Positions 1,361 through 11,029 of a DNA stretch of 64,000 nt are shown here, piece after piece. Source of the DNA: an uncultured bacterium (GTDB taxonomy: Bacteria; Armatimonadota; UBA5829; DTLH01); contig CAZCCV010000009.1 in NCBI GenBank assembly GCA_964497515.1, positions 643 to 64,642 on the forward strand. Direction: 5' to 3'. The stretch's first letter is position 1; each line of letters begins with the position of its first letter. The translations under genes and the position numbers were made by a program. Below the pieces are notes generated by a model. That model ran no database searches and had not been told where the DNA came from. It saw only the letters and a list, made by a program, of their open reading frames with translations.

Positions 1361-1406
1361 CTTTGCAACTGCAAAGAACCAGTGGGGAGGGTGATATAGC
1401 CCTCCC
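1361..1406. terminator. two adjacent stem-loops between convergent genes
   Basis: ctttgca/tgcaaag at 1361..1376 and gggaggg-8nt-ccctccc at 1385..1406, lying 3 nt after the stop of the 1409..2443 gene. There is no strong U-tract. Confidence 0.4.
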
Positions 1407-1408
1407 TG

Positions 1409-2443
1409 CTACATTTTCAACGCTTTTTCGGCAAGTTCGATTGCAGTGACAAATACTTCCTCGGTTTGAGTTAGATCCGTAGTATAGCCTCTCCCCGATG
1501 TCGGTTGGCGCACTACCGCAATTTCCATATCCGCTTCTTTTTTCAGTTCGACAAGCTGTGATTTGAAACGTGCAAGCTTTGCTTCTTTCTTTGCATTCTT
1601 GTCGGCCGCAACACCAGTTTTGAAACCACCCGAGGGTGGCTTCTGGACTATTTCTTTGCATCTGTCGATTAGATAAAAGAGTGGCTTTGCTACCAGAATA
1701 CAGTACGTATATGGAAACTTTTTGGATTCAACGGAATTTAGAGTGGTCTGCACCTGCACACCTATGAAATCCTCATCGGAGTCCCTGAACTTGACGAGGA
1801 GCCTGCAATCCATAGGCACAGCGCCAGATTTCGTATTAGCTAACAACATCGAATAATGAAACTCCAACTGCGGCCAACTATCAGAGAGCCTGTGAATATG
1901 CATAAGCTGATTGATTCGCATGGCCAAATGAGGAGGTTGCCAAGCAACGACTCTTCCGGCAACAATCAACGGTAAAAACAGCGTAAACCCATCGATGATC
2001 AACACTTGCAGTAGCGGAGACTCATCGGGTGAGGTCAACCCAGAGTTCGGATTCAACAATCCGGTCAACAGTCGAAAGATCATCAACCCTACTACTAACA
2101 AAGCAAACAGAAAGAGACATCCACCCAAATTGGCGAGACAAGAGTTTCGAGAAATCCCTTGAGATCGCTTACTCATTTCGAGCGCAGATTCCAGTTCTTC
2201 GTATGTGACCTCACGCCACTCTTCTTTGCTCTTGAGCTTGGGTTTGTTCGATGCGTCTTTGATGCAAAGCAACAGCGCGGCAACTAAAACGAAGACCCAG
2301 CCTACGGCAAAAGACCAATCCAATTCGAAGCCAGAGACTGACTGAATGGTTATCCCAATCACTGCAGAAGCAGCAATTAGAACCATACGCACTTCGACAG
2401 ATAATGTGTTAGCTATAAGAAACTTGGGTTTCATCTCTTTCAA
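1409..2443 (-). CDS. hypothetical polytopic membrane protein, last gene of the rSAM operon
   Basis: The 344-aa ORF has about 4 hydrophobic helices in the first ~170 residues and a soluble C-terminal half. Its TTG start at 2443 overlaps the rSAM stop (TTGA); an alternative ATG lies at 2434. I recognise no family. Confidence 0.6.
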   Translation of the reverse strand: MKEMKPKFLIANTLSVEVRMVLIAASAVIGITIQSVSGFELDWSFAVGWVFVLVAALLLCIKDASNKPKLKSKEEWREVTYEELESALEMSKRSQGISRNSCLANLGGCLFLFALLVVGLMIFRLLTGLLNPNSGLTSPDESPLLQVLIIDGFTLFLPLIVAGRVVAWQPPHLAMRINQLMHIHRLSDSWPQLEFHYSMLLANTKSGAVPMDCRLLVKFRDSDEDFIGVQVQTTLNSVESKKFPYTYCILVAKPLFYLIDRCKEIVQKPPSGGFKTGVAADKNAKKEAKLARFKSQLVELKKEADMEIAVVRQPTSGRGYTTDLTQTEEVFVTAIELAEKALKM

Positions 2444-3771
2444 CTGCGTGCTGCAACCGCAACAGCCGATTCAATCTCTTTGTAACCGATAGCATCCCAA
2501 TATATCGGGCAGGCACCAGTGCAGATGTCAAAATGCCGACAGTCGCGACAGATGCGGTGAGCATACCTTTTTCCCCGCCAATAGCGGGACTTTCTGTTAT
2601 TCCAAACGCGCTGGAAGCCATCCTTCAGGATATTACCGACGTTCTTTGACAGACTGGAACACGGCAGAACTCCGCCATCTGGTGCTATCGAGAGAAGCCC
2701 ATCGCAGGCAGCGCACGACTTCCCTCCTAATCCCATAGCAACCGGATTCACAATGCAGTAGGGCGTAGGTGAATACCATAAGAACTCGACATCTGCCTCC
2801 CAAGCAGCTCGCTTCAGTTTATCGAGTAATTCAGGCATCTCAGAGTACAAGACAGTGACTCCTGTGTCCGGAGCCGTCCCGCACGGAATAACCATATTCA
2901 TCGACAGGCGTTTCAGCCCGAGTTCTTTGACAAGTCCGACAATTTCTGCGAGATGAGGCGCATTAATCCGGTTGATAGTAGTGTTGGTATGAACGTGCAA
3001 GCCGGCGTCTTTGAGCAGCGATATTCCGCGCAGGGTTCGATCGTACGAGCCGGGAGTCTGCGTAAGGGAATCGTGTATCTCGGCATTGGCACCTTCCAGA
3101 CTCACCTGTGCACTTCTGAGTCCAGCGTTTTTGAGCTGGTCTACGAGCTCCTGCGTCAGGTTATTGCCGTTAGTGATCAGATTGACTCGCATACCGAGCT
3201 CTGTTGCGTACGCGGTCAGTTCGACCAGGTCGCTTCTCAGCGTCGGTTCCCCACCCGTCCAACTGACACTCGGCACTTCTGCATCGTAACGAATGGCATC
3301 TAGAACCTGTTTCACCTCGGCTGTAGACATTTCACTACTGAAATTTCTGTCGCTTTTGGTGCAAGTGCACCCCGCGTAGCAGAACTTACAGCTAAGGTTG
3401 CAGCGATATGTGAGCGCGATTTCAGAAAGCACCGGCAGCGAGTTGTGCGGACGTGTAAATGATGTCTCTTCCACTGCTCGACGCCCTTTTCCTTCGCCCA
3501 AGCAGCCCATCACAAGAGCGCGAAGATCGCAGAAGAAGTGAAAAACGTCGGTAAGCACCTTTTCGTCTTTGGATAGTCCCTCAGACTTTTGCTCTAATAC
3601 ATCGATCAGCGAAGAACCGGCCATCATACGCCCGAGTATTGCAAGGCCAGCGGGATTCAGCTTGTACGCCTGGTTAGGAAGCAGTATCAGCAAGCTATCC
3701 CGCTCCCGGACGTATACGTATTCCGAGATGCTTTTCACAAAATCATCAGCCCAAGATACATCCACACTCAC
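2440..3771 (-). CDS. radical SAM/SPASM domain peptide-modifying enzyme with N-terminal PqqD-like RRE
   Basis: CNLSCKFC (CX3CX2C) radical SAM motif. SPASM-type C-terminus CAACDG...LPCS...CRDCRHFDICTGAC. The N-terminal ~95 aa (YVYVRERDSLLILLPNQAYKLNPAGLAILGRMMAGSSLIDVLE) resemble an RRE. I moved the start to GTG 3771, which sits 8 nt after a GGAGGT Shine-Dalgarno and overlaps the upstream TAG by 1 nt. The track start at 3909 reads through the neighbour's repeat in the wrong frame. Confidence 0.85.
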   Translation of the reverse strand: MSVDVSWADDFVKSISEYVYVRERDSLLILLPNQAYKLNPAGLAILGRMMAGSSLIDVLEQKSEGLSKDEKVLTDVFHFFCDLRALVMGCLGEGKGRRAVEETSFTRPHNSLPVLSEIALTYRCNLSCKFCYAGCTCTKSDRNFSSEMSTAEVKQVLDAIRYDAEVPSVSWTGGEPTLRSDLVELTAYATELGMRVNLITNGNNLTQELVDQLKNAGLRSAQVSLEGANAEIHDSLTQTPGSYDRTLRGISLLKDAGLHVHTNTTINRINAPHLAEIVGLVKELGLKRLSMNMVIPCGTAPDTGVTVLYSEMPELLDKLKRAAWEADVEFLWYSPTPYCIVNPVAMGLGGKSCAACDGLLSIAPDGGVLPCSSLSKNVGNILKDGFQRVWNNRKSRYWRGKRYAHRICRDCRHFDICTGACPIYWDAIGYKEIESAVAVAARS

Positions 3772-5438
3772 TAGTGCGCACCTCCGCTCACACACGCACT
3801 GTGGCAAGCTGAATGACAGGCGCTGTGGCACGCCGAATGACACGCACTGTGGCAAGCTGAATGACAAGCATCGTGGCAAGCAGTGTGAACGTAACAGGCT
3901 GAGTGACACGCATCCGAATGAATAAACGCTGAGTAACTTAGGCCAGCGCCAAAAGCGCGCTCTCCAATAGCTTTACTGATTTCGCTCGCCCTGCCCTTGC
4001 CCTCATTAGTGAATTCTCGGTACAAATGATACGCATAGAACCTGGAATAACTGTTGCCCCAAGACGTATAAGTATCATCCAAAGAACCACCGCGTTCGAC
4101 AGCTTCGAATTGTTCCTTGATCTGTTTCTTGTAGTATTCCTTTGTGGCTTCGAGATCGCAATCCCAAGCCTTAGCCTGTACTCTGTCGGTCATCTCGCGG
4201 AAGATATCCTTGATTGTGCTATCATCCAGCAAGCCTTCGTTGTGGATGGCGTTTAGCAGCATATTCTCGTACAAGCTTTCTGCAGAGATTCCAGGAGGAT
4301 AGAGTCTTTCGACCCGTATTGGATCAAGTGAAAGAACCTTTACCAAACCTCGCCTCTCCAGACTCGCGATAATCGTACCTACGATCTTGGACAGGGAAAT
4401 ATCCAGCAGAAGAGCCGCCTCAATTGGATCGAGTTCGGCAACCTTCCCTTGCTGACGGAAGCTGGAGACTTTTATGAGCGGCGGCACCCAGTCTGCATTC
4501 TCCCATCGCACTTCATCGAGTCGACTTGCAGCCTTTGAATACGTGTTCAGTTTGCGTGAGAACAGAATAAGCACGCCTACGACTACACTGAAAACAGCCA
4601 CTGCACCCGGCAAGCCCAACGGTTTGGCAGGAGTCTCAGGCATCATCGGAGCGACTGGATCAATTGGAAGATAGGGTGCATCCGGCGGCAATGTCTGTTG
4701 CTGCCCACCCTCCCCTGAAGGTGCGTCAGTTTTCAGAGTAAAATACTTCGCGTCAATATAGCACTGCAGATTGAACTTATACTGCGGAGGAACAGCATCT
4801 TTGTGGAACCGAACAGTCATATAGTAAGCGTTTTGGCTCGGCTGCCCGTAGTAGCTGATGAGGTATTCGCGGTTGACGAACTTCTCTGTCTTAAAGCCTG
4901 TCTTGTTCAGTAAGGCTTCATCGACTACTTCGCTTGCTGTTTTGATGGGATAGTGAAGATAGAGGGTATAGTGTCCTGCTGCTTGGTCGAACTGGCACGG
5001 CGCCCAATTGAGATATGCGAGCTTCCCGTCTGGCGCATCGGTGTAGCCAAGCATTCCGGCTGCCGCCAAATCTGTGCCGTAAAGGATAACGTACGTAACC
5101 TCTCCTCTTGAAACCGCAGCACCGTTCGCTAGCACAATATCGAATTGGTTGCCCAAATCAGTGATGGAGAGCTTATACTTGCGCCCACTAGAATCGACGG
5201 CATACGATTCGTCGTAGCCGAAATGTGGATATGCTCCGCTAAAACCCTGCAAGTAGAAGCCGTGAAGATCGCCGCTAAGCACTTTGTAACGGACTTTGTA
5301 GACAATTGTCGCCTTACCGTCGACGTGCGGCGATATGTCGACCTCGACCCACTTGAGTTCTACCGAGGTCGCCCAAACTGAAACACAGGAGAGCAGCAAC
5401 AAGCTGCTCAAAATCAGCACACGACGCAAGACAGACAC
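3771..5438 (-). CDS. signal-peptide/single-TM protein (DUF2207-like N-domain) with C-terminal (CHSA)n Cys/His repeat tail
   Basis: Signal peptide MSVLRRVLILSSLLLLSCVSVWA. Beta-rich N-domain with VDGKATIVYKVRYKV..LHGFY, then a Pro-rich linker, TM helix LGLPGAVAVFSVVVGVLILFS followed by RK, and a ~250-aa helical domain. The tail reads SDACHSACYVHTACHDA(CHSA)x6CVSGGAH. GTG start at 5438. Confidence 0.8.
   Translation of the reverse strand: MSVLRRVLILSSLLLLSCVSVWATSVELKWVEVDISPHVDGKATIVYKVRYKVLSGDLHGFYLQGFSGAYPHFGYDESYAVDSSGRKYKLSITDLGNQFDIVLANGAAVSRGEVTYVILYGTDLAAAGMLGYTDAPDGKLAYLNWAPCQFDQAAGHYTLYLHYPIKTASEVVDEALLNKTGFKTEKFVNREYLISYYGQPSQNAYYMTVRFHKDAVPPQYKFNLQCYIDAKYFTLKTDAPSGEGGQQQTLPPDAPYLPIDPVAPMMPETPAKPLGLPGAVAVFSVVVGVLILFSRKLNTYSKAASRLDEVRWENADWVPPLIKVSSFRQQGKVAELDPIEAALLLDISLSKIVGTIIASLERRGLVKVLSLDPIRVERLYPPGISAESLYENMLLNAIHNEGLLDDSTIKDIFREMTDRVQAKAWDCDLEATKEYYKKQIKEQFEAVERGGSLDDTYTSWGNSYSRFYAYHLYREFTNEGKGRASEISKAIGERAFGAGLSYSAFIHSDACHSACYVHTACHDACHSACHSACHSACHSACHSACHSACVSGGAH
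3792..3908 (-). repeat. coding tandem repeat, 12-nt (CXXX) unit organised as a 24-nt super-unit
   Basis: Minus-strand units are tgtcattcagct / tgccacagtgcg / tgtcattcggcg / tgccacagcgcc / tgtcattcagct / tgccacagtgcg. They are preceded by degenerate CHSA, CYVHTA and CHDA units. Confidence 0.95.
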
Positions 5439-5447
5439 AATTAGCTT

Positions 5448-5837
5448 TTATTCCCTCGAGGACTCTGTTCTAGCTCGCAGAAGATCAGCCTGAGCAGAGA
5501 TATACTGTGCAAAATCGCTTTTTGACTGAGACCACTCGGATTCACCAGGGAATGTTGAGACTACTCCCTGCCAGATAATCTGGTAGGTACGTTCCAGGCA
5601 CGGTCGAGAGTCTCCCTTTCCAGTGAACTCAAAAGTGGCTTCGATGTTTGTCGGCCGAAACACAGGCGTCGGGCCGGAGACTATCTCCGTTGCTACTCCG
5701 AGAAAAACAACGCCTAATTCTTCCACAACATCGAGGTGCTCTCTGATAGCGCGGACGACGGACGCAACAGAAAAGTCCGCAGAAGAGAAACGCATTGTAA
5801 GCAAAGAGCCATTTATGTCTCCATAAGGCATCTGCAT
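5448..5837 (-). CDS. hypothetical soluble protein, first gene of the rSAM operon
   Basis: 129-aa ORF with an AGGAGGG Shine-Dalgarno 8 nt upstream of ATG 5837. Its stop is 9 nt before the next gene. I recognise no family. Confidence 0.6.
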   Translation of the reverse strand: MQMPYGDINGSLLTMRFSSADFSVASVVRAIREHLDVVEELGVVFLGVATEIVSGPTPVFRPTNIEATFEFTGKGDSRPCLERTYQIIWQGVVSTFPGESEWSQSKSDFAQYISAQADLLRARTESSRE

Positions 5838-6015
5838 TTTGGTTGCCCTCCTAAGCAGCGTTCATTGCAAATTCACAGTCTTATTCGTCGGCACGAAGCC
5901 CGTTTCCTGCACGTCTTCGTTTGCCGTATTGATGCAGGCCGTGTGACGAGAAAACAGTTGGAAGCACGATGAACTCGATACCAATGAGTTGTGGCATTAC
6001 TGCAACGGCATCGCG

Positions 6016-7131
6016 CTACCGAAGCACCTTCTCTGTTTCTGCGTCGAAGATATGTGTTCTCGCCATCTGCAAGACAAGCGATACATCATCACCCGGTGAA
6101 CAACCGGCAATCGGTGATTCCGAATCGATTGAAGCGACCATATCGTGATTGCCGGAGTTCAGGTACATTGTGACCGTTGCTCCCATTGGCTCGACAACAT
6201 CAACCCGGGCGGAAATGGTATTGTCTTCTGTTGGCTTCGCAACTGGGCTTAGGTCTCTATCGAAGATGTCTTCTGGTCTGATGCCGAATACTATCTGTTT
6301 GCCTGCGTAGTTTGATAGGTTCTCTGACTTCTCGGCGGTAGACCTTACAGTGAAGTGCCCTGTATTCACCAAATAGCCGTTCTCATCCTCTTCTAGTGTT
6401 GCTTGAACAAAATTCATTGCCGGACTTCCGATGAACCCTGCTACGAACAGGTTCGCTGGCTTGTTGTAGAGATTAAGAGGAGTATCTACCTGTTGGATTA
6501 CACCATCTTTCATTACGACTATGCGATCGCCCATCGTCATAGCTTCTACTTGGTCGTGTGTGACATAGATCGTTGTAATCCCGAGTCGCCTGTGGAGTTT
6601 AATCAATTCGGCGCGCGTTTGCACTCGCAGTTTTGCATCCAGGTTTGAGAGAGGTTCGTCCATAAGAAAGACTGCCGGTTCGCGCACGATAGCTCTGCCG
6701 AGCGCGACCCGCTGTCGCTGCCCGCCGGAGAGTTGCTTGGGCTTGCGATGGAGGAGTTCGGCAAGTCCCAGCAGCGCCGCGGCATCTTTTACGCGCTTTT
6801 CGATCTCCGCTTTGGGGAGTTTTTTGAGTTTCAGCGCAAACGACATATTGTCGTAGACGCTCATATGCGGGTACAGAGCGTAGTTCTGAAAAACCATCGC
6901 AATGTCGCGGTCTTTCGATGAGACGTCGTTTACGAGTTGATCACCGATGTATATCTCGCCTTCGGTAGCTTCTTCGAGACCGGCGACCATCCTGAGAGCG
7001 GTAGTCTTTCCACATCCAGAGGGACCAACAAGAACCAGAAACTCCTTGTCTTTGATCTCCAGGTTCATATTGTCGACAGCGACAACGTTCTTGAATGCTT
7101 TGGTAAGGTTCTTGAGAACCACTTGCGCCAT
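6016..7131 (-). CDS. sugar ABC transporter ATP-binding protein (MalK/UgpC/MsmX type)
   Basis: Walker A GPSGCGKTT, signature LSGGQRQR, Walker B FLMDEPLS, and a MalK-type C-terminal regulatory domain. Start set at ATG 7131 (MAQVVLKNL), which has an AGGAGG Shine-Dalgarno; the 77-aa extension in the track has no support. Confidence 0.9.
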   Translation of the reverse strand: MAQVVLKNLTKAFKNVVAVDNMNLEIKDKEFLVLVGPSGCGKTTALRMVAGLEEATEGEIYIGDQLVNDVSSKDRDIAMVFQNYALYPHMSVYDNMSFALKLKKLPKAEIEKRVKDAAALLGLAELLHRKPKQLSGGQRQRVALGRAIVREPAVFLMDEPLSNLDAKLRVQTRAELIKLHRRLGITTIYVTHDQVEAMTMGDRIVVMKDGVIQQVDTPLNLYNKPANLFVAGFIGSPAMNFVQATLEEDENGYLVNTGHFTVRSTAEKSENLSNYAGKQIVFGIRPEDIFDRDLSPVAKPTEDNTISARVDVVEPMGATVTMYLNSGNHDMVASIDSESPIAGCSPGDDVSLVLQMARTHIFDAETEKVLR

Positions 7132-7399
7132 AAGTAAGCAGCCTCCTAGTTTCGGGCCTGTCCCCATATCGCCGAAACCGCTAATAAAATGAAGTGCCCT
7201 GGGACTAGGGCTGAGCCCATTATATGGCCGAGAATTTGTGGTGTCAACGGAACAAGCTGCAAACAATGAATAGTCAGAACCTTGACTATCACAATACCGA
7301 TGATCGATGATGCTGCCGGAAATCAGCCATACTGCACATCTGATGACAATTTCACCGAGCAACCTTTCTTGACCTCGTCACAGGCGGGTAGTAGAATAT

Positions 7400-10300
7400 A
7401 TGTGTTGGTCGGCAGTCTGTGCTGCCGATAATACTATGGATGATTCAGGGTTTTGGCGTCCCCCACTCTTTTGCGCCAAAGCCCTTTTGGCGCTGTACGG
7501 ATATATGGCACTTTCAGACTTGCTGCAACTAAATAGCGATCTTCCGCAGTTTCGGAGTATAGTCGACGCTCTTGAGCAGTCAAAAGCAAGCGTGCACCTC
7601 GACGGGCTTTCGAATTCCGCAAAAGGATTTGTCCTCGGGGCACTATCTAAAGAACTCGCGCACCCGATGTTCATTCTCACCTACTCCAGCGAGCAGGCAG
7701 AGCGGCTTGCTGATGATTTTGCACAGTTTGGCATTGATGACTCCGAGCTCTATGTGCTTCCTTCGTCGGATGCGTTGATCTTTGAAGAAGGCGCACCGGA
7801 TTATGGGGCGATCGGGCACCGGCTGGCTGCAATGGACGCTATATCGAGTGGACGCCAAGTTATCGTAGTTGCTCCGATAAATGGCGCTCTCAGGCGAACT
7901 ATGCCGCGACAGATGCTGCACGATTACCGCCTAGAAGCGAGCGTCGGAGAGACTCTTGTAGTAGAAGACTTCGTGAGCCGGTTAGTCGATCTCGGCTACG
8001 AACGTGTTGATGTGTGCGAGAGCCACGGCGAGTTCAGTGTGCGCGGCGGAATAATCGACCTATATCCATCGAACGAGGTTGAACCACTCAGAATTGAGCT
8101 TTTCGGAGATGACATAGAGAGCATTCGGGCGTTCGATCCAACATCACAGCGTTCTACAGACCGCCGCAAAAGAATCCTTGCTCTGCCTGCAAGAGAGGTC
8201 GTGCTGACTGCAGCAAACGCAGATTCGGCAGCCGAGTCGATACACGCAGAGATGCAGGAGCAGATCCGCAAGTTTGAAGAAGCGGATCAGTCGGAAGAGG
8301 CGGCGCGATTGGAAGCCAAGGTAGAAGATGATATCTCCAGACTGACCAACCTTGCATACTTCGATGGAATCGAAGGCTACCTGCCTTATATTTATCCTGA
8401 AGAATACTCAATACTCGACTATCTTACGCCATCGGCTATCGTAGTATTTGACGAGCCACATCAGACTGCATCTCAGTGGGAGCAGCACGAGCAAGAGATG
8501 TTGGAAGCTCTGATAAATCGTGCCGGACGTGGGCTTCTACTGGCGTCTACAAAGAGTCAGCACGTATCAGTCGACTCTGCACTGGCAAAGCTTTCGAAAT
8601 CCTGGCCGGGACTAATTCTTACGGTTCTAGATAGACCGCTACCATACGGATTGAAGGGCACAAGGCTGCACGTTGAGTCATCACCCGTTGAAACATTCGC
8701 TGGCAAAATCGATCTCTTCGTAGACCAACTGAAAACATGGAGTGCAAACAAACTGCGCGCTGTTATAGCCACTAATCAGCACGACCGAACTGTGGAATTG
8801 CTCGGCGAACACGGCATTCCGATACGGCCTAACGAGGAGCTGACAGCCAATGCGCCATCGGGCGTATATCTGATTGCATCGCAGATGCGCTCTGGATTCA
8901 AACTGCCAGAAGCAAATCTGGTTGTAGTCTCAGATTCCGAAGTCTTTGGCATTACGCGCACTCGTCGTCCAAGAAAGACCGCCAAAGAAGGTGTGCCAAT
9001 ATCAACAATCCTCGACCTCAAAGAAGGGGATTACATAGTGCACATCTCGCACGGAATCGGTGTATACCGCGGTATCGAGCAGCTTACAGTAGAAAACGTG
9101 TCGCGGGAGTATTTGCTGCTGGAATACGCGGGTGAAGACAAACTCTATGTGCCAACCGAACAGATAGACAGAGTGCAGAAGTACATAGGTGGCGAAGGAA
9201 ACACTCCGCTGGTTCACAGGCTCGGAGGCAGTGAGTGGGTTAGAGCCACAAAGCGTGTGAAGCAGGCAGTAAGAGAGATGGCTAAGGAGCTGATTGAGCT
9301 GTATGCCTGGCGTCAGGCGCTCGGCGGTTACTCGTTCAGCCCGGATACGCCTTGGCAGCAGGAGATGGAATCGGCATTTCCTTACGAAGAGACAGCCGAC
9401 CAGATTGAGGCCATTAACGATGTGAAGCGCAATCTCGAAGAGCCCAAACCGATGGATCGACTGATATGTGGTGACGTTGGCTACGGTAAGACCGAAGTTG
9501 CCGTAAGAGCCGCTTTCAAGGTAGTAAACGATGGCAAGCAGGTCGCTGTTTTGGCTCCCACAACGGTGCTGGCACAGCAGCACTGGAACACGTTCAAAGA
9601 GCGCCTGGGCGCGTTTCCGATAGGCATAGAGATGCTCTCTCGGTTCCGCACGCGCAAGGAGTCAAAAGCGGTAGTAGAGGGCTTGGAGCTCGGCACAGTT
9701 GATATTGTTATCGGCACGCACAGACTCTTCTCGAAGGACGTCAAGTTCAAGGATCTTGGACTATTGATAGTCGACGAAGAACAGCGCTTCGGCGTCAGCC
9801 ACAAAGAGCGTCTGAAGCAGTTGAAGAAGAACGTAGATGCACTCACCCTTACAGCAACGCCGATTCCAAGGACTCTGCATATGTCGCTTGCCGGCATACG
9901 CGATATGAGCGTGATTAACGATCCACCAGAGGGCAGAACACCGATTAAGACGTTTGTGCGCGAATATGACGACGAAGTAGTCCGCGAAGCGATAATCCGC
10001 GAGATTGACCGTGGTGGACAAGTATTCTTTGTACACAACAGAGTGGAAAACATCGAACACGTTGCAGAACATATCGCAAAGCTGGTGCCGTATGCGCGCG
10101 TCGATATAGGCCACGGTCAAATGGATGAAGACGATCTGGAACGGGTTATGCTCGATTTCTACGACCGGAAGTACGATGTGTTAGTCTGCACGACGATAGT
10201 CGAAAGCGGGTTGGACATTCCAAACGTCAATACAATTGTAGTGAACAACGCAGATAAAATGGGGCTCGCGCAGCTTTATCAGCTCCGAGGGAGAGTTGGC

Positions 10301-11029
10301 CGGTCAAATAAGCAGGCATACGCCTATTTGATGTACAAAGCCGACAAGTCTCTTACCGAAGTCGCGGAGAAACGACTCGAAGCGATTCGTGAGTTCACCG
10401 ATCTGGGTTCTGGCTTCAGAATCGCGCTTAGAGATTTGGAAATCCGGGGTGCGGGGAATCTATTAGGAGCTGAACAACACGGCCAGATAGCTCAAGTAGG
10501 TTTCGACCTTTACTGCCAACTGCTATCGCAGGCGGTTTCGGAGTTGAAGGGAGAGGAAGTTCAGGAGGTTCAGCTTCCACAAGTGGATCTGCCAATCGAC
10601 GCCTACATCCCTCAAGACTATATGACCGCTGAAGCGCAGAGAATATTCTTTTACAAGAAGATGGCAGCGGCGAAGACTGAAAAGGAAGTCCGTCAGATCC
10701 AGGACGAACTGGACGACCGTTTTGGCGACCCACCCAAGCAAGTATGGAATATGCTTTCGATACTGCGTATGAGAATCAGAGCGGCTGAGGTTGGTATTTC
10801 GTCGATATCTACCGACAAGCGGCAGATAATCATTCGATTTGCCCCAGGATTCAGGTTGATTCAGGAAGTGCAGCGCGAGCTTCAGCGCACACATAAGCGT
10901 CACTGGTTCCAGGGCGATAGAGTCGCGATCAACCCGGACACGCCGAGAATTGTCAATCTGGTGGAAGATATGATTGAGATTGTGGCAAAGGGGCTTAAAA
11001 CCAGTGCGAAGAAAATGCAGGTAGCTTAA
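7400..11029 (+). CDS. mfd: transcription-repair coupling factor
   Basis: UvrB-homology N-terminus, CarD-like RID (GDYIVHISHGIG), helicase motifs GDVGYGKTEVA and DEEQRFG, and a TRG/C-terminal domain. The start is uncertain; ATG 7505 (MALSDLLQL) is a plausible alternative. Confidence 0.93.
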   Translation: MCWSAVCAADNTMDDSGFWRPPLFCAKALLALYGYMALSDLLQLNSDLPQFRSIVDALEQSKASVHLDGLSNSAKGFVLGALSKELAHPMFILTYSSEQAERLADDFAQFGIDDSELYVLPSSDALIFEEGAPDYGAIGHRLAAMDAISSGRQVIVVAPINGALRRTMPRQMLHDYRLEASVGETLVVEDFVSRLVDLGYERVDVCESHGEFSVRGGIIDLYPSNEVEPLRIELFGDDIESIRAFDPTSQRSTDRRKRILALPAREVVLTAANADSAAESIHAEMQEQIRKFEEADQSEEAARLEAKVEDDISRLTNLAYFDGIEGYLPYIYPEEYSILDYLTPSAIVVFDEPHQTASQWEQHEQEMLEALINRAGRGLLLASTKSQHVSVDSALAKLSKSWPGLILTVLDRPLPYGLKGTRLHVESSPVETFAGKIDLFVDQLKTWSANKLRAVIATNQHDRTVELLGEHGIPIRPNEELTANAPSGVYLIASQMRSGFKLPEANLVVVSDSEVFGITRTRRPRKTAKEGVPISTILDLKEGDYIVHISHGIGVYRGIEQLTVENVSREYLLLEYAGEDKLYVPTEQIDRVQKYIGGEGNTPLVHRLGGSEWVRATKRVKQAVREMAKELIELYAWRQALGGYSFSPDTPWQQEMESAFPYEETADQIEAINDVKRNLEEPKPMDRLICGDVGYGKTEVAVRAAFKVVNDGKQVAVLAPTTVLAQQHWNTFKERLGAFPIGIEMLSRFRTRKESKAVVEGLELGTVDIVIGTHRLFSKDVKFKDLGLLIVDEEQRFGVSHKERLKQLKKNVDALTLTATPIPRTLHMSLAGIRDMSVINDPPEGRTPIKTFVREYDDEVVREAIIREIDRGGQVFFVHNRVENIEHVAEHIAKLVPYARVDIGHGQMDEDDLERVMLDFYDRKYDVLVCTTIVESGLDIPNVNTIVVNNADKMGLAQLYQLRGRVGRSNKQAYAYLMYKADKSLTEVAEKRLEAIREFTDLGSGFRIALRDLEIRGAGNLLGAEQHGQIAQVGFDLYCQLLSQAVSELKGEEVQEVQLPQVDLPIDAYIPQDYMTAEAQRIFFYKKMAAAKTEKEVRQIQDELDDRFGDPPKQVWNMLSILRMRIRAAEVGISSISTDKRQIIIRFAPGFRLIQEVQRELQRTHKRHWFQGDRVAINPDTPRIVNLVEDMIEIVAKGLKTSAKKMQVA

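Follow-up and report, generated by a model that had tools for sequence, protein, structure and literature searches.

A radical SAM enzyme linked to a membrane protein with a Cys-His repeat tail: a candidate protein-tail modification system found across bacterial phyla

What is the substrate of a radical SAM enzyme that is built like a peptide maturase but whose gene follows, in place of a gene for a small precursor peptide, one for a large membrane protein ending in a string of Cys-His-Ser-Ala units? The question is raised by a 64,000-nucleotide stretch of DNA (hereafter, the window) from an uncultured bacterium of the Armatimonadota (GTDB lineage UBA5829; DTLH01; assembly GCA_964497515.1, contig CAZCCV010000009.1, positions 643 to 64,642 of the forward strand). 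Between positions 1409 and 5837 of the window, four open reading frames (ORFs) packed head to tail on the minus strand encode, in the order of transcription, proteins of 129, 555, 443 and 344 amino acids (aa), denoted here p129, p555 (the tail protein), the enzyme and p344. A preliminary description of this locus, made from the sequence alone, proposed that the enzyme modifies the C-terminal tail of p555 and that the arrangement might be a new variant or a new system. Here, we explored these four proteins by profile searches, structure modelling and comparison of gene neighbourhoods. On the strength of sequence comparisons, we consider it likely that the enzyme modifies the tail, and we regard as probable, on balance, the fuller proposal that the cassette is a conserved three-gene protein-modification system in which the enzyme crosslinks the tail, closing one ring per repeat.

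The argument starts from gene linkage. Scanning one genome per species yielded 342 confirmed relatives of the enzyme, and the best 80 of these 342 loci were fetched. Enzyme identity across the 80 loci ranges from 42 to 67%, and the loci represent about 20 phyla, with lineages taken from the record titles: Armatimonadota, Abditibacteriota, Lentisphaerae, Kiritimatiellae, Sumerlaeota, Planctomycetota, Spirochaetes, Elusimicrobia, WOR-3, Omnitrophota, Nitrospiraceae, Auribacterota, Hydrogenedentes, Gammaproteobacteria (Sedimenticola), Verrucomicrobia, Riflebacteria, Thermoleophilia, Bacteroidales, Gemmatimonadales, Calditrichaceae, Desulfobulbus alkaliphilus DSM 24258 and Cloacimonetes. Two loci are truncated at the enzyme start, leaving 78 that are informative for the upstream gene. 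The Cys-X3 tail protein that the preliminary description expected upstream of orthologous enzymes was present in 77 of these 78 loci, directly upstream and on the same strand, ending in (CH[S/D/G]A)n-CVS[G/S]G; the tail-bearing protein is always homologous and 500-600 aa long. Searches with the window proteins using phmmer identified the tail protein at 77, p344 at 75 and p129 at 15 of the 80 loci, and the median spacing is 6 nucleotides between the tail protein and the enzyme genes and -4 nucleotides between those for the enzyme and p344. The conserved core of the cassette is thus three genes in the order tail protein, enzyme, p344. No other gene family, in particular no protease or transporter, recurs within 4 kb of the cassette in the 80 loci.

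The tail is the best-conserved segment of the p555 family. In the window, it occupies residues 508-555 (3774..3917, minus strand; delimited from sequence and codons) and is the presumed substrate, or 'core', of the enzyme; as set out in the preliminary description, it starts with SDACHSACYVHTA... at residue 508, and the C-terminus reads SDA-CHSA-CYVHTA-CHDA-(CHSA)x6-CVSGGAH; these 48 residues, which close a large membrane protein, include 10 Cys and 10 His. The tails of all 77 loci are alike. With the tails anchored on the final CVS, register is kept across this CVS and the seven CHxA units that precede it, with C, H and A each conserved in 76-77 of 77 tails and eight Cys at exact i+4 spacing. 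The number of contiguous CHxA units is 7 in 54 loci, 8 in 20, 9 in 2 and 5 in a single one. Only the middle residue of the unit (X2) varies (S 436, D 92, G 30, A 2, N 1), and it does so by position: D occupies the first unit in 53 of the 77 loci, S the central units in 74-76, and G is found in the last two units in 13-17 loci of one clade, where it is accompanied by a CVSSGH ending. The consensus can be written as [A/V]-(C-H-[S/D/G]-A)7-8-C-V-S-G-G. Pooled over the loci, synonymous codons are mixed (TGC 318 and TGT 243 for Cys; CAC 309 and CAT 252 for His), and Ser codons are drawn from both the TCN and the AGY boxes, even inside the window tail. Selection thus acts at the level of the protein sequence, and the array is ancient, with its length fixed.

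Is the enzyme equipped to act on such a tail? The 443-aa protein (GTG start; 2440..3771, minus strand) matches Pfam Radical_SAM over residues 120-265 (103.8 bits) and SPASM over residues 353-411 (39 bits, threshold 21.5), as well as the SPASM model TIGR04085 (49 bits, cut-off 27). It contains the cluster motif CNLSCKFC (CX3CX2C; C124, C128 and C131; 3379..3402), the sequence CRDCRHFDICTGAC (CX2CX5CX3C) and a CX9GX4C motif. C124, C128 and C131 are invariant in 85 orthologues, as are eight Cys of the SPASM region (C339, C353, C356, C371, C408, C411, C417 and C421; 2497..2757), which would suffice for two fully ligated auxiliary [4Fe-4S] clusters. Four further Cys outside the three canonical cluster motifs are near-invariant, namely, C81 and C90, in or after helix alpha3 of the N-terminal domain (within 3472-3771), and C135 and C137, right after CX3CX2C (CYAGCxC; 3361-3378).

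All four window proteins were scanned against Pfam, NCBIfam and PADLOC. In NCBIfam, 92 radical SAM families match the enzyme, none near its cut-off: the best scores are those of AhbD (164 bits vs 500), NirJ2 (140 vs 500) and NirJ (133 vs 515), followed by TIGR04133 (131), PqqE (121), the mycofactocin maturase (112), the ACGX-system model TIGR04340 (106 vs 400) and the PapB model NF047865 (82.7 vs 340). More than 120 full-length orthologues at no less than 51% identity are present in a collection of 5.8 billion proteins. An AlphaFold2 model of the enzyme, built from 85 sequences, has a mean predicted local distance difference test (pLDDT) score of 92.2, with alternating beta and alpha elements above 90. 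In a Foldseek comparison with the PDB, the best match of this model is SuiB (E 1.8e-17; 448 aligned columns, i.e., the full length), followed by SkfB, BlsE, PqqE and anSME, and a PDB sequence search likewise gives SkfB and PqqE as the best matches, with CteB also among the closest solved relatives. From sequence and model together, we conclude that the enzyme is most plausibly an RRE-radical SAM-SPASM protein of the peptide-maturase type that falls outside all curated families. An anti-phage defence system was considered and set aside, PADLOC having returned nothing beyond a viperin-like similarity.

The part of the enzyme that would recognise a peptide is a putative PqqD-like RiPP recognition element (RRE) at residues 1-100 (3472..3771, minus strand), assigned from the model and from sub-threshold hidden Markov model (HMM) matches. 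In the model, the N-terminus consists of helix 7-15, strands 19-22, 27-30 and 34-37, and helices 40-50, 55-62 and 70-87, so that the N-terminal 110 residues are predicted to have the three strands and three helices (beta3-alpha3) of the RRE topology. This region gave no match when the whole enzyme was scanned; scanned alone, it hits the PqqD model TIGR03859 (E 2.8e-5; 23.9 bits, cut-off 46). Across the family, 28 of 43 N-termini match Pfam PqqD (E up to 10; best 1.3e-4), and others match the model of the lasso-peptide PqqD chaperone. When the N-terminal profile was compared with the PDB, the top match, an HIV protease, was discarded as spurious (26 residues), and the first plausible one is the lasso-peptide RRE TfuB1 (E 0.088). 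In RREs, strand beta3 and helix alpha3 form the peptide-binding groove; the most conserved N-terminal residues of the enzyme lie near beta3 (P32, N33, N39) and within alpha3 (F79, F80, C81, D82, R84). The three-part reading of the enzyme given in the preliminary description therefore stands on the Pfam matches, the full-length alignment with SuiB and the PqqD matches of the isolated N-terminus, and the profile-HMM check it called for places Radical_SAM and SPASM above threshold and PqqD below threshold, yet consistent with an RRE.

Enzyme and tail must also meet on the same side of the membrane. The tail protein (555 aa, GTG start; 3771..5438, minus strand) is predicted to consist of a signal or anchor at residues 7-25, after RR, an extracytoplasmic part (26-273), a transmembrane (TM) helix (274-292), a cytoplasmic part (293-507) and the Cys/His tail. 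Hydropathy and charge delineate a hydrophilic domain of 248 residues, a strong TM helix at 274-292 followed by SRKLNTYSKAASR, and a C-terminal part of 263 residues. The positive-inside rule places the tail, by prediction, in the cytoplasm and, therefore, within the enzyme's reach. The tail-protein and p344 families were gathered from the genome loci and from an exhaustive search of representative sequences, a word-indexed protein search having returned only 5 tail-protein and 4 p344 homologues. Among 53 members of the p555 family, 22 match the N-terminal domain of Pfam DUF2207 (E up to 1; best 1.1e-6) and 2 match DUF2207_C; the window protein itself has no Pfam match, DUF2207 included. Judged from these sequence matches, p555, a predicted bitopic membrane protein, appears to be distantly related to DUF2207. 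Scans of p555, p344 and p129 against Pfam, NCBIfam and PADLOC yielded no family assignment, and PDB profile searches with the three families yielded nothing usable.

Besides the tail, the p555 family conserves the segments W312..DW.PP.I..S.FR..GK...L...EA and K.AWDCD.EAT..YY (residues 422-437). Between the WDCD...YY motif and the tail lies a variable linker rich in Tyr, Trp and His (residues 429-507; 3918..4154, minus strand). In 52 loci, 75-113 residues of poorly conserved sequence separate the WDCD motif from the start of the contiguous CHxA units. Over the interval compared in these loci, which corresponds to window residues 429-520 and so includes the first 13 residues of the tail, 17.6% of the residues are Y, W or H, as opposed to 7.9% outside it, and the best 20-residue window contains a median of 10 of them. 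The composition of the linker is kept while its sequence is not, as illustrated by YYWGGYYHHHHRDYN and WYHWYYGNLNYFNYRYHYH from other phyla.

The preliminary description assigned two further partners to the enzyme and the tail protein, of which one belongs to the conserved core and the other does not. The former, p344 (344 aa, TTG start; 1409..2443, minus strand), is present at 75 of the 80 loci and has four predicted TM helices (18-36, 43-61, 108-126 and 144-165), with the N-terminus inside, and a C-terminal cytoplasmic alpha/beta domain of 179 residues (166-344). An exhaustive HMMER search of 1.84 billion representatives recovered 303 clusters (50% identity), with lengths of about 310-350 aa throughout; p344 thus forms a compact family in which one architecture is kept. 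Its AlphaFold2 model (pLDDT 93.5) comprises the helices and an alpha/beta domain with a long antiparallel sheet, and polar residues of the cytoplasmic domain, as well as a proline, are invariant (P210, Q232, N236, Y245, Y247, R312). Foldseek with this model gave nothing significant; that the cytoplasmic domain might bind peptides in a chaperone-like manner is a weak lead. The latter, p129 (129 aa, ATG start; 5448..5837, minus strand), is soluble, and its homologues lie directly upstream of the tail protein at only 15 of the 80 loci (Armatimonadota, WOR-3, Riflebacteria and relatives), where they are well conserved (68% mean column identity). Thus, p129 is a lineage-restricted accessory outside the universal core.

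In the window, the packing of the four minus-strand ORFs is as first described. A Shine-Dalgarno sequence, AGGAGGG (5846..5852), lies 8 nucleotides 5' of the p129 ATG; a gap of 9 nucleotides (aagctaatt) separates p129 from p555; p555 and the enzyme overlap in TAGTG, the enzyme's GTG beginning with the last base of the TAG stop; and the enzyme and p344 overlap in TTGA. An alternative start for p344, an ATG at 2434, three codons in, would give the 341-aa form under which the public protein collection lists p344 (P0126), and the gene may start there rather than at the TTG. Directly 3' of the p344 stop, a stem-loop (GGGAGGG-ctatatca-CCCTCCC, with a 7-bp stem and an 8-nucleotide loop; 1385..1406) faces a convergent plus-strand ORF ending at 1360 and is the probable end of the operon; a simple terminator scan did not report it because it has no T-run close behind it. 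The tail repeats (3771-3909 in the window; similarly, L007:7890-9407, L058:7340-8287 and L078:7583-8092) yield spurious Cys-rich or Leu/Ser-rich ORF extensions in other frames or on the opposite strand and, therefore, gene callers may mis-start the enzyme gene. One such candidate, a 489-aa enzyme ORF from a GTG at 3909, was rejected: the 46 residues that it adds come from reading the tail repeats in a different frame, and the orthologues start at the 443-aa form.

The genes that flank the cassette in the window, judged from their translations, seem unrelated to it: the convergent ORF (176-1360) is glycoside-hydrolase-like, 6016-7362 encodes an ABC-transporter ATPase of the MalK/UgpC type, and 7400-11029 a 1209-aa Mfd-like transcription-repair coupling factor. 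At other loci, the position directly upstream of the tail protein, which p129 takes in Armatimonadota, is occupied in 9 cases by a 184-aa multi-helix membrane protein (first listed at L027:868-1422, an Elusimicrobia metagenome-assembled genome (MAG)); these genes seem to be lineage-specific fourth members. Directly 3' of p344, NifU-like and NifS-like (cysteine desulfurase) genes are found in about 8 loci (first listed at L023:2509-4690, an Elusimicrobiaceae MAG), and, in one case (L081:728-3632, from the same genome as L006, OW818698.1), genes for an Rrf2-family regulator, a poly-ferredoxin and a hybrid-cluster protein (Prismane) lie divergently just upstream of the cassette, an association that is not conserved at the other loci. 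Both sets were considered as parts of the system and rejected as lineage-specific. Among the 80 loci, the only cultured named strain with the full cassette is Desulfobulbus alkaliphilus DSM 24258 (L070; NZ_JAFFQC010000005.1, 2169-6426).

What, then, might the cassette do? We infer the tail as the substrate, the number and type of its crosslinks, the role of p344 and the cellular function as follows. The DUF2207-like membrane protein would present its C-terminal 260 residues to the cytoplasm, where the enzyme would dock on the tail protein via its PqqD-like domain. The 5'-deoxyadenosyl radical would abstract one hydrogen per repeat as the enzyme moves along the tail, and one small intramolecular ring would be closed in each repeat, with a mass change of -2 Da apiece and 7-8 rings per tail. 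The finished product would stay on the membrane protein, since no protease or exporter is linked to the cassette, as a rigid cross-linked Cys/His array at the inner face of the membrane. Given its four-helix anchor and a conserved cytoplasmic domain with polar invariant residues, p344 would probably hold or position the tail or the enzyme at the membrane. The finished tail could serve in metal binding, as a redox relay or in signalling linked to the outside domain.

The tail is proposed as the substrate because the enzyme has a conserved recognition domain, is almost constantly encoded next to the tail protein and is predicted to be on the same side of the membrane; that it is a substrate rather than a generic metal-binding tail is suggested by the fixation of all positions of the unit but X2, including the Ala, and of the number of units. 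If the tail is modified, the bond that we tentatively favour is a thioether that joins the Cys sulfur with a carbon in a neighbouring residue, of the sactionine or ranthionine type, which would leave the His free as metal ligands. A His-Ala cyclophane is a weaker candidate, and some other chemistry is unlikely, although still to be reckoned with. A thioether, named along with carbon-carbon crosslinks in the preliminary description, finds a precedent in PapB but is not the sole option, H-x-A being a known His-Ala cyclophane motif.

Several points weigh against this proposal. Gene linkage is the sole ground on which we infer that the tail is modified, and in one locus the linkage fails: a Cloacimonetes MAG (L073; NBMB01000001.1, 7466-10322) encodes the enzyme and p344, with the tail protein not adjacent; the upstream position is taken there by the gene of a multi-helix membrane protein of 151 aa that lacks Cys repeats, and all frames of the 17-kb locus are free of CHxA repeats. 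The enzyme scores below every curated family cut-off, and its top NCBIfam models, AhbD and NirJ2, describe tetrapyrrole enzymes, not peptide maturases. Its RRE matches to PqqD are below threshold both for TIGR03859 and, in the window protein, for Pfam (13.2 bits vs 23.4). The tail is not directly preceded by a conserved, leader-like segment, but by the variable linker. Finally, the PapB acceptor is an Asp or Glu at +4, a position that here is taken by the next Cys, and the variable S/D/G position cannot serve as a universal side-chain acceptor.

Several other readings of the cassette were considered. One that builds on crosslinking of the tail, possible although we would not expect it, is that the product is a protein-derived cofactor: a housekeeping-type modification, shared by about 20 phyla, would turn the tail into a covalently laddered Cys/His array, which would bind a defined set of metal ions or Fe-S units and, with the linker taking part, would act as a redox or metal-sensing or relay module coupled to the DUF2207-like ectodomain. 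[quoted passage not shown]

Rather unlikely, in our estimate, is the same system with triceptide chemistry, in which the C2 of each His bonds with the Ala beta-carbon two positions further along, producing 7-8 imidazole cyclophanes and leaving the Cys free, for example, as metal or cluster ligands. Indeed, the invariance of H and A around a variable middle residue corresponds to the aromatic-X2-X3 pattern of triceptides, the tail offers 7-8 such H-[S/D/G]-A units in tandem, triceptide precursors often carry several tandem motifs, and the triceptide synthase ChlB is among both the structural and the sequence matches of the enzyme. ChlB, however, ranks only in the middle (Foldseek E 1.7e-10; 28 bits in hmmsearch), below SuiB, SkfB and PqqE; in NCBIfam, none of the triceptide-family models gives a good score, and the HxsC model is outside the best 25 NCBIfam matches of the window enzyme and appears only for the L070 orthologue, with 61.7 bits vs 267.9; and the invariance of the Cys would need a separate explanation.

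More improbable is an unmodified tail that binds metal or Fe-S, with the enzyme acting at the membrane on something else, such as a tetrapyrrole, a lipid or another small molecule, and the tail protein serving as scaffold, electron partner or regulator. In this reading, the eight Cys at even spacing and the seven or eight His of the tail would be the ligands, and C-H-S-A-C-H can be read as overlapping CX3CH motifs; the top NCBIfam scores belong to tetrapyrrole enzymes of the AhbD and NirJ type, the lipid-modifying GDGT-MAS is among the PDB matches of the enzyme, both partners are membrane proteins, and the NifU/NifS genes 3' of the cassette and the single case of Rrf2, ferredoxin and Hcp genes nearby would fit. 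Yet these Fe-S neighbours are lineage-specific, and the AhbD and NirJ scores are far below the cut-off. The enzyme, moreover, has a PqqD-like domain with groove residues conserved across phyla, and we know of no such peptide-recognition domain in AhbD, NirJ or Tes. Nor are ordinary metal-binding tails kept residue for residue, Ala included, with a fixed number of repeats in about 20 phyla.

We consider it very improbable that the tail is cut off after crosslinking to become a peptide natural product or a cofactor, in the manner of pyrroloquinoline quinone (PQQ) or mycofactocin, with the membrane protein as a mere carrier or leader. The PqqE and mycofactocin models (121 and 112 bits) are among the better family matches of the enzyme, the invariant CVSGG[A/S]H end recalls, in our reading, the conserved C-termini of cofactor precursors, and core peptides at the ends of large proteins occur in other RiPP classes, such as the borosins. 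Still, no gene for a protease, a transporter or a further tailoring enzyme is conserved beside the cassette in the 80 loci, and the conservation of the carrier extends to an ectodomain and a folded cytoplasmic domain, for which a mere leader would have no need. The last reading, in which low complexity or slippage produced the repeat as an artefact, or the gene is false, draws on the repetitive DNA and the spurious Cys-rich ORFs in other frames and is refuted by the comparative data, the tail being in frame, in register and synonymously varied in 77 loci from about 20 phyla.

We therefore return to crosslinking of the tail by the linked enzyme as the preferred reading. The linkage points to a widespread modification of a membrane protein after translation, one that has escaped notice until now, and the cassette gives DUF2207-type proteins a first concrete biochemical handle. 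An enzyme that crosslinks a four-residue unit repeat by repeat would be of interest to peptide engineers, whichever bond it makes. With a tail that is short, invariant and repetitive, the prediction is directly testable, and the D. alkaliphilus strain offers a cultured carrier. Both a thioether and a cyclophane would give -2 Da per unit, and thiol alkylation distinguishes between them.

How does the cassette compare with known systems? To our knowledge, nearly all of the RRE-radical SAM-SPASM enzymes described make either small secreted peptides or peptide-derived cofactors. The closest solved relatives, SuiB (the streptide maturase), CteB, SkfB and PqqE with PqqD, share with the enzyme the RRE, the radical SAM core and the SPASM domain with two auxiliary clusters, but only 16-23% sequence identity. 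Those enzymes act on small leader-core peptides, which usually undergo cleavage and export, whereas the substrate presumed here is a membrane-protein tail, with no protease or exporter linked. For the same reason, the cassette does not match a classical RiPP cluster, in which a short leader-core precursor is accompanied by a linked peptidase or exporter: the precursor would be a 555-aa membrane protein, and neither a protease nor a transporter recurs nearby.

With respect to the chemistry, a likeness is offered by PapB, which forms Cys-Asp thioethers on tandem CX3D motifs of the freyrasin ranthipeptide (PMC9413430, PMC10739248): in both cases, one radical SAM/SPASM enzyme would make one small thioether ring per tandem short Cys motif. 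The acceptor of PapB is Asp or Glu, however, whereas the tail unit has no conserved acidic residue, and the enzyme falls far short of the PapB model cut-off. The triceptide synthases HaaB and HtkB act on tandem His-X-Ala or His-X-Lys motifs, and HaaB links the His C2 to the Ala C-beta on HAA (PMC11499958); the tail unit likewise contains H-[S/D/G]-A, but the triceptide substrates are small peptides, and here every unit adds an invariant Cys. Nothing in the searches, whose libraries include no model for the clades of these synthases, places the enzyme among them. In the case of the ACGX system (TIGR04340), the family name implies Ala-Cys-Gly-X repeats, and the tail reads Ala-Cys-His-X in the same register; the enzyme's score for this model, though, is about a quarter of the cut-off.

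For the tail protein, DUF2207 (PF09972 / PF20990) provides a similar layout of signal sequence, outside domain, membrane span and cytoplasmic part, from which p555 differs in its single central membrane helix and its Cys/His tail. DUF2207 has been associated with a stress and biofilm phenotype in S. mutans (PMC10457818).

The nearest counterpart of the tail itself is the target of the Cxxx-repeat system (TIGR04117; PF27846, tSAM_targ_Cxxx_rpt), known in silico only, in which a C-terminal Cys at every fourth residue is likewise found beside a radical SAM enzyme. The preliminary description mentioned such a family, and the family indeed exists; the accession given for its maturase, TIGR04115, could not be verified by name, being termed only 'a peptide maturation domain' in one paper, and this model is outside the best 25 NCBIfam matches (below 79 bits for the whole enzyme, below 14 for its SPASM part and below 62 for the L070 orthologue). 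The tail aligns with positions 60-97 of the 98-position TIGR04117 profile with 15.7 bits (cut-off 50), full-length members score 11-13 bits, and a precomputed PF27846 match on the homologue P0001 is marked 'faint'. By sequence, then, the tail resembles the Cxxx-repeat target family without being a member of it. Furthermore, TIGR04117 describes a protein of about 98 residues, listed as a paralogous family, whereas here the array ends a 555-aa DUF2207-like membrane protein, with a strict C-H-x-A unit, a fixed number of repeats, a distribution over about 20 phyla and a third conserved membrane partner.

The suggestion that the cassette is a new variant or system is borne out insofar as no NCBIfam or Pfam family claims any of its components and searches of 8 million full texts on the motif, on repeats of the Cxxx or ACGX kind and on DUF2207 combined with a radical SAM enzyme turned up no account of the cassette. 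By analogy with the systems compared here, the cassette probably acts like an RRE-radical SAM-SPASM maturase on a Cxxx-repeat target, outside the named families. It differs from these in the presumed type of substrate, the end of a conserved membrane protein, in the third conserved membrane partner and in the breadth of the distribution across phyla.

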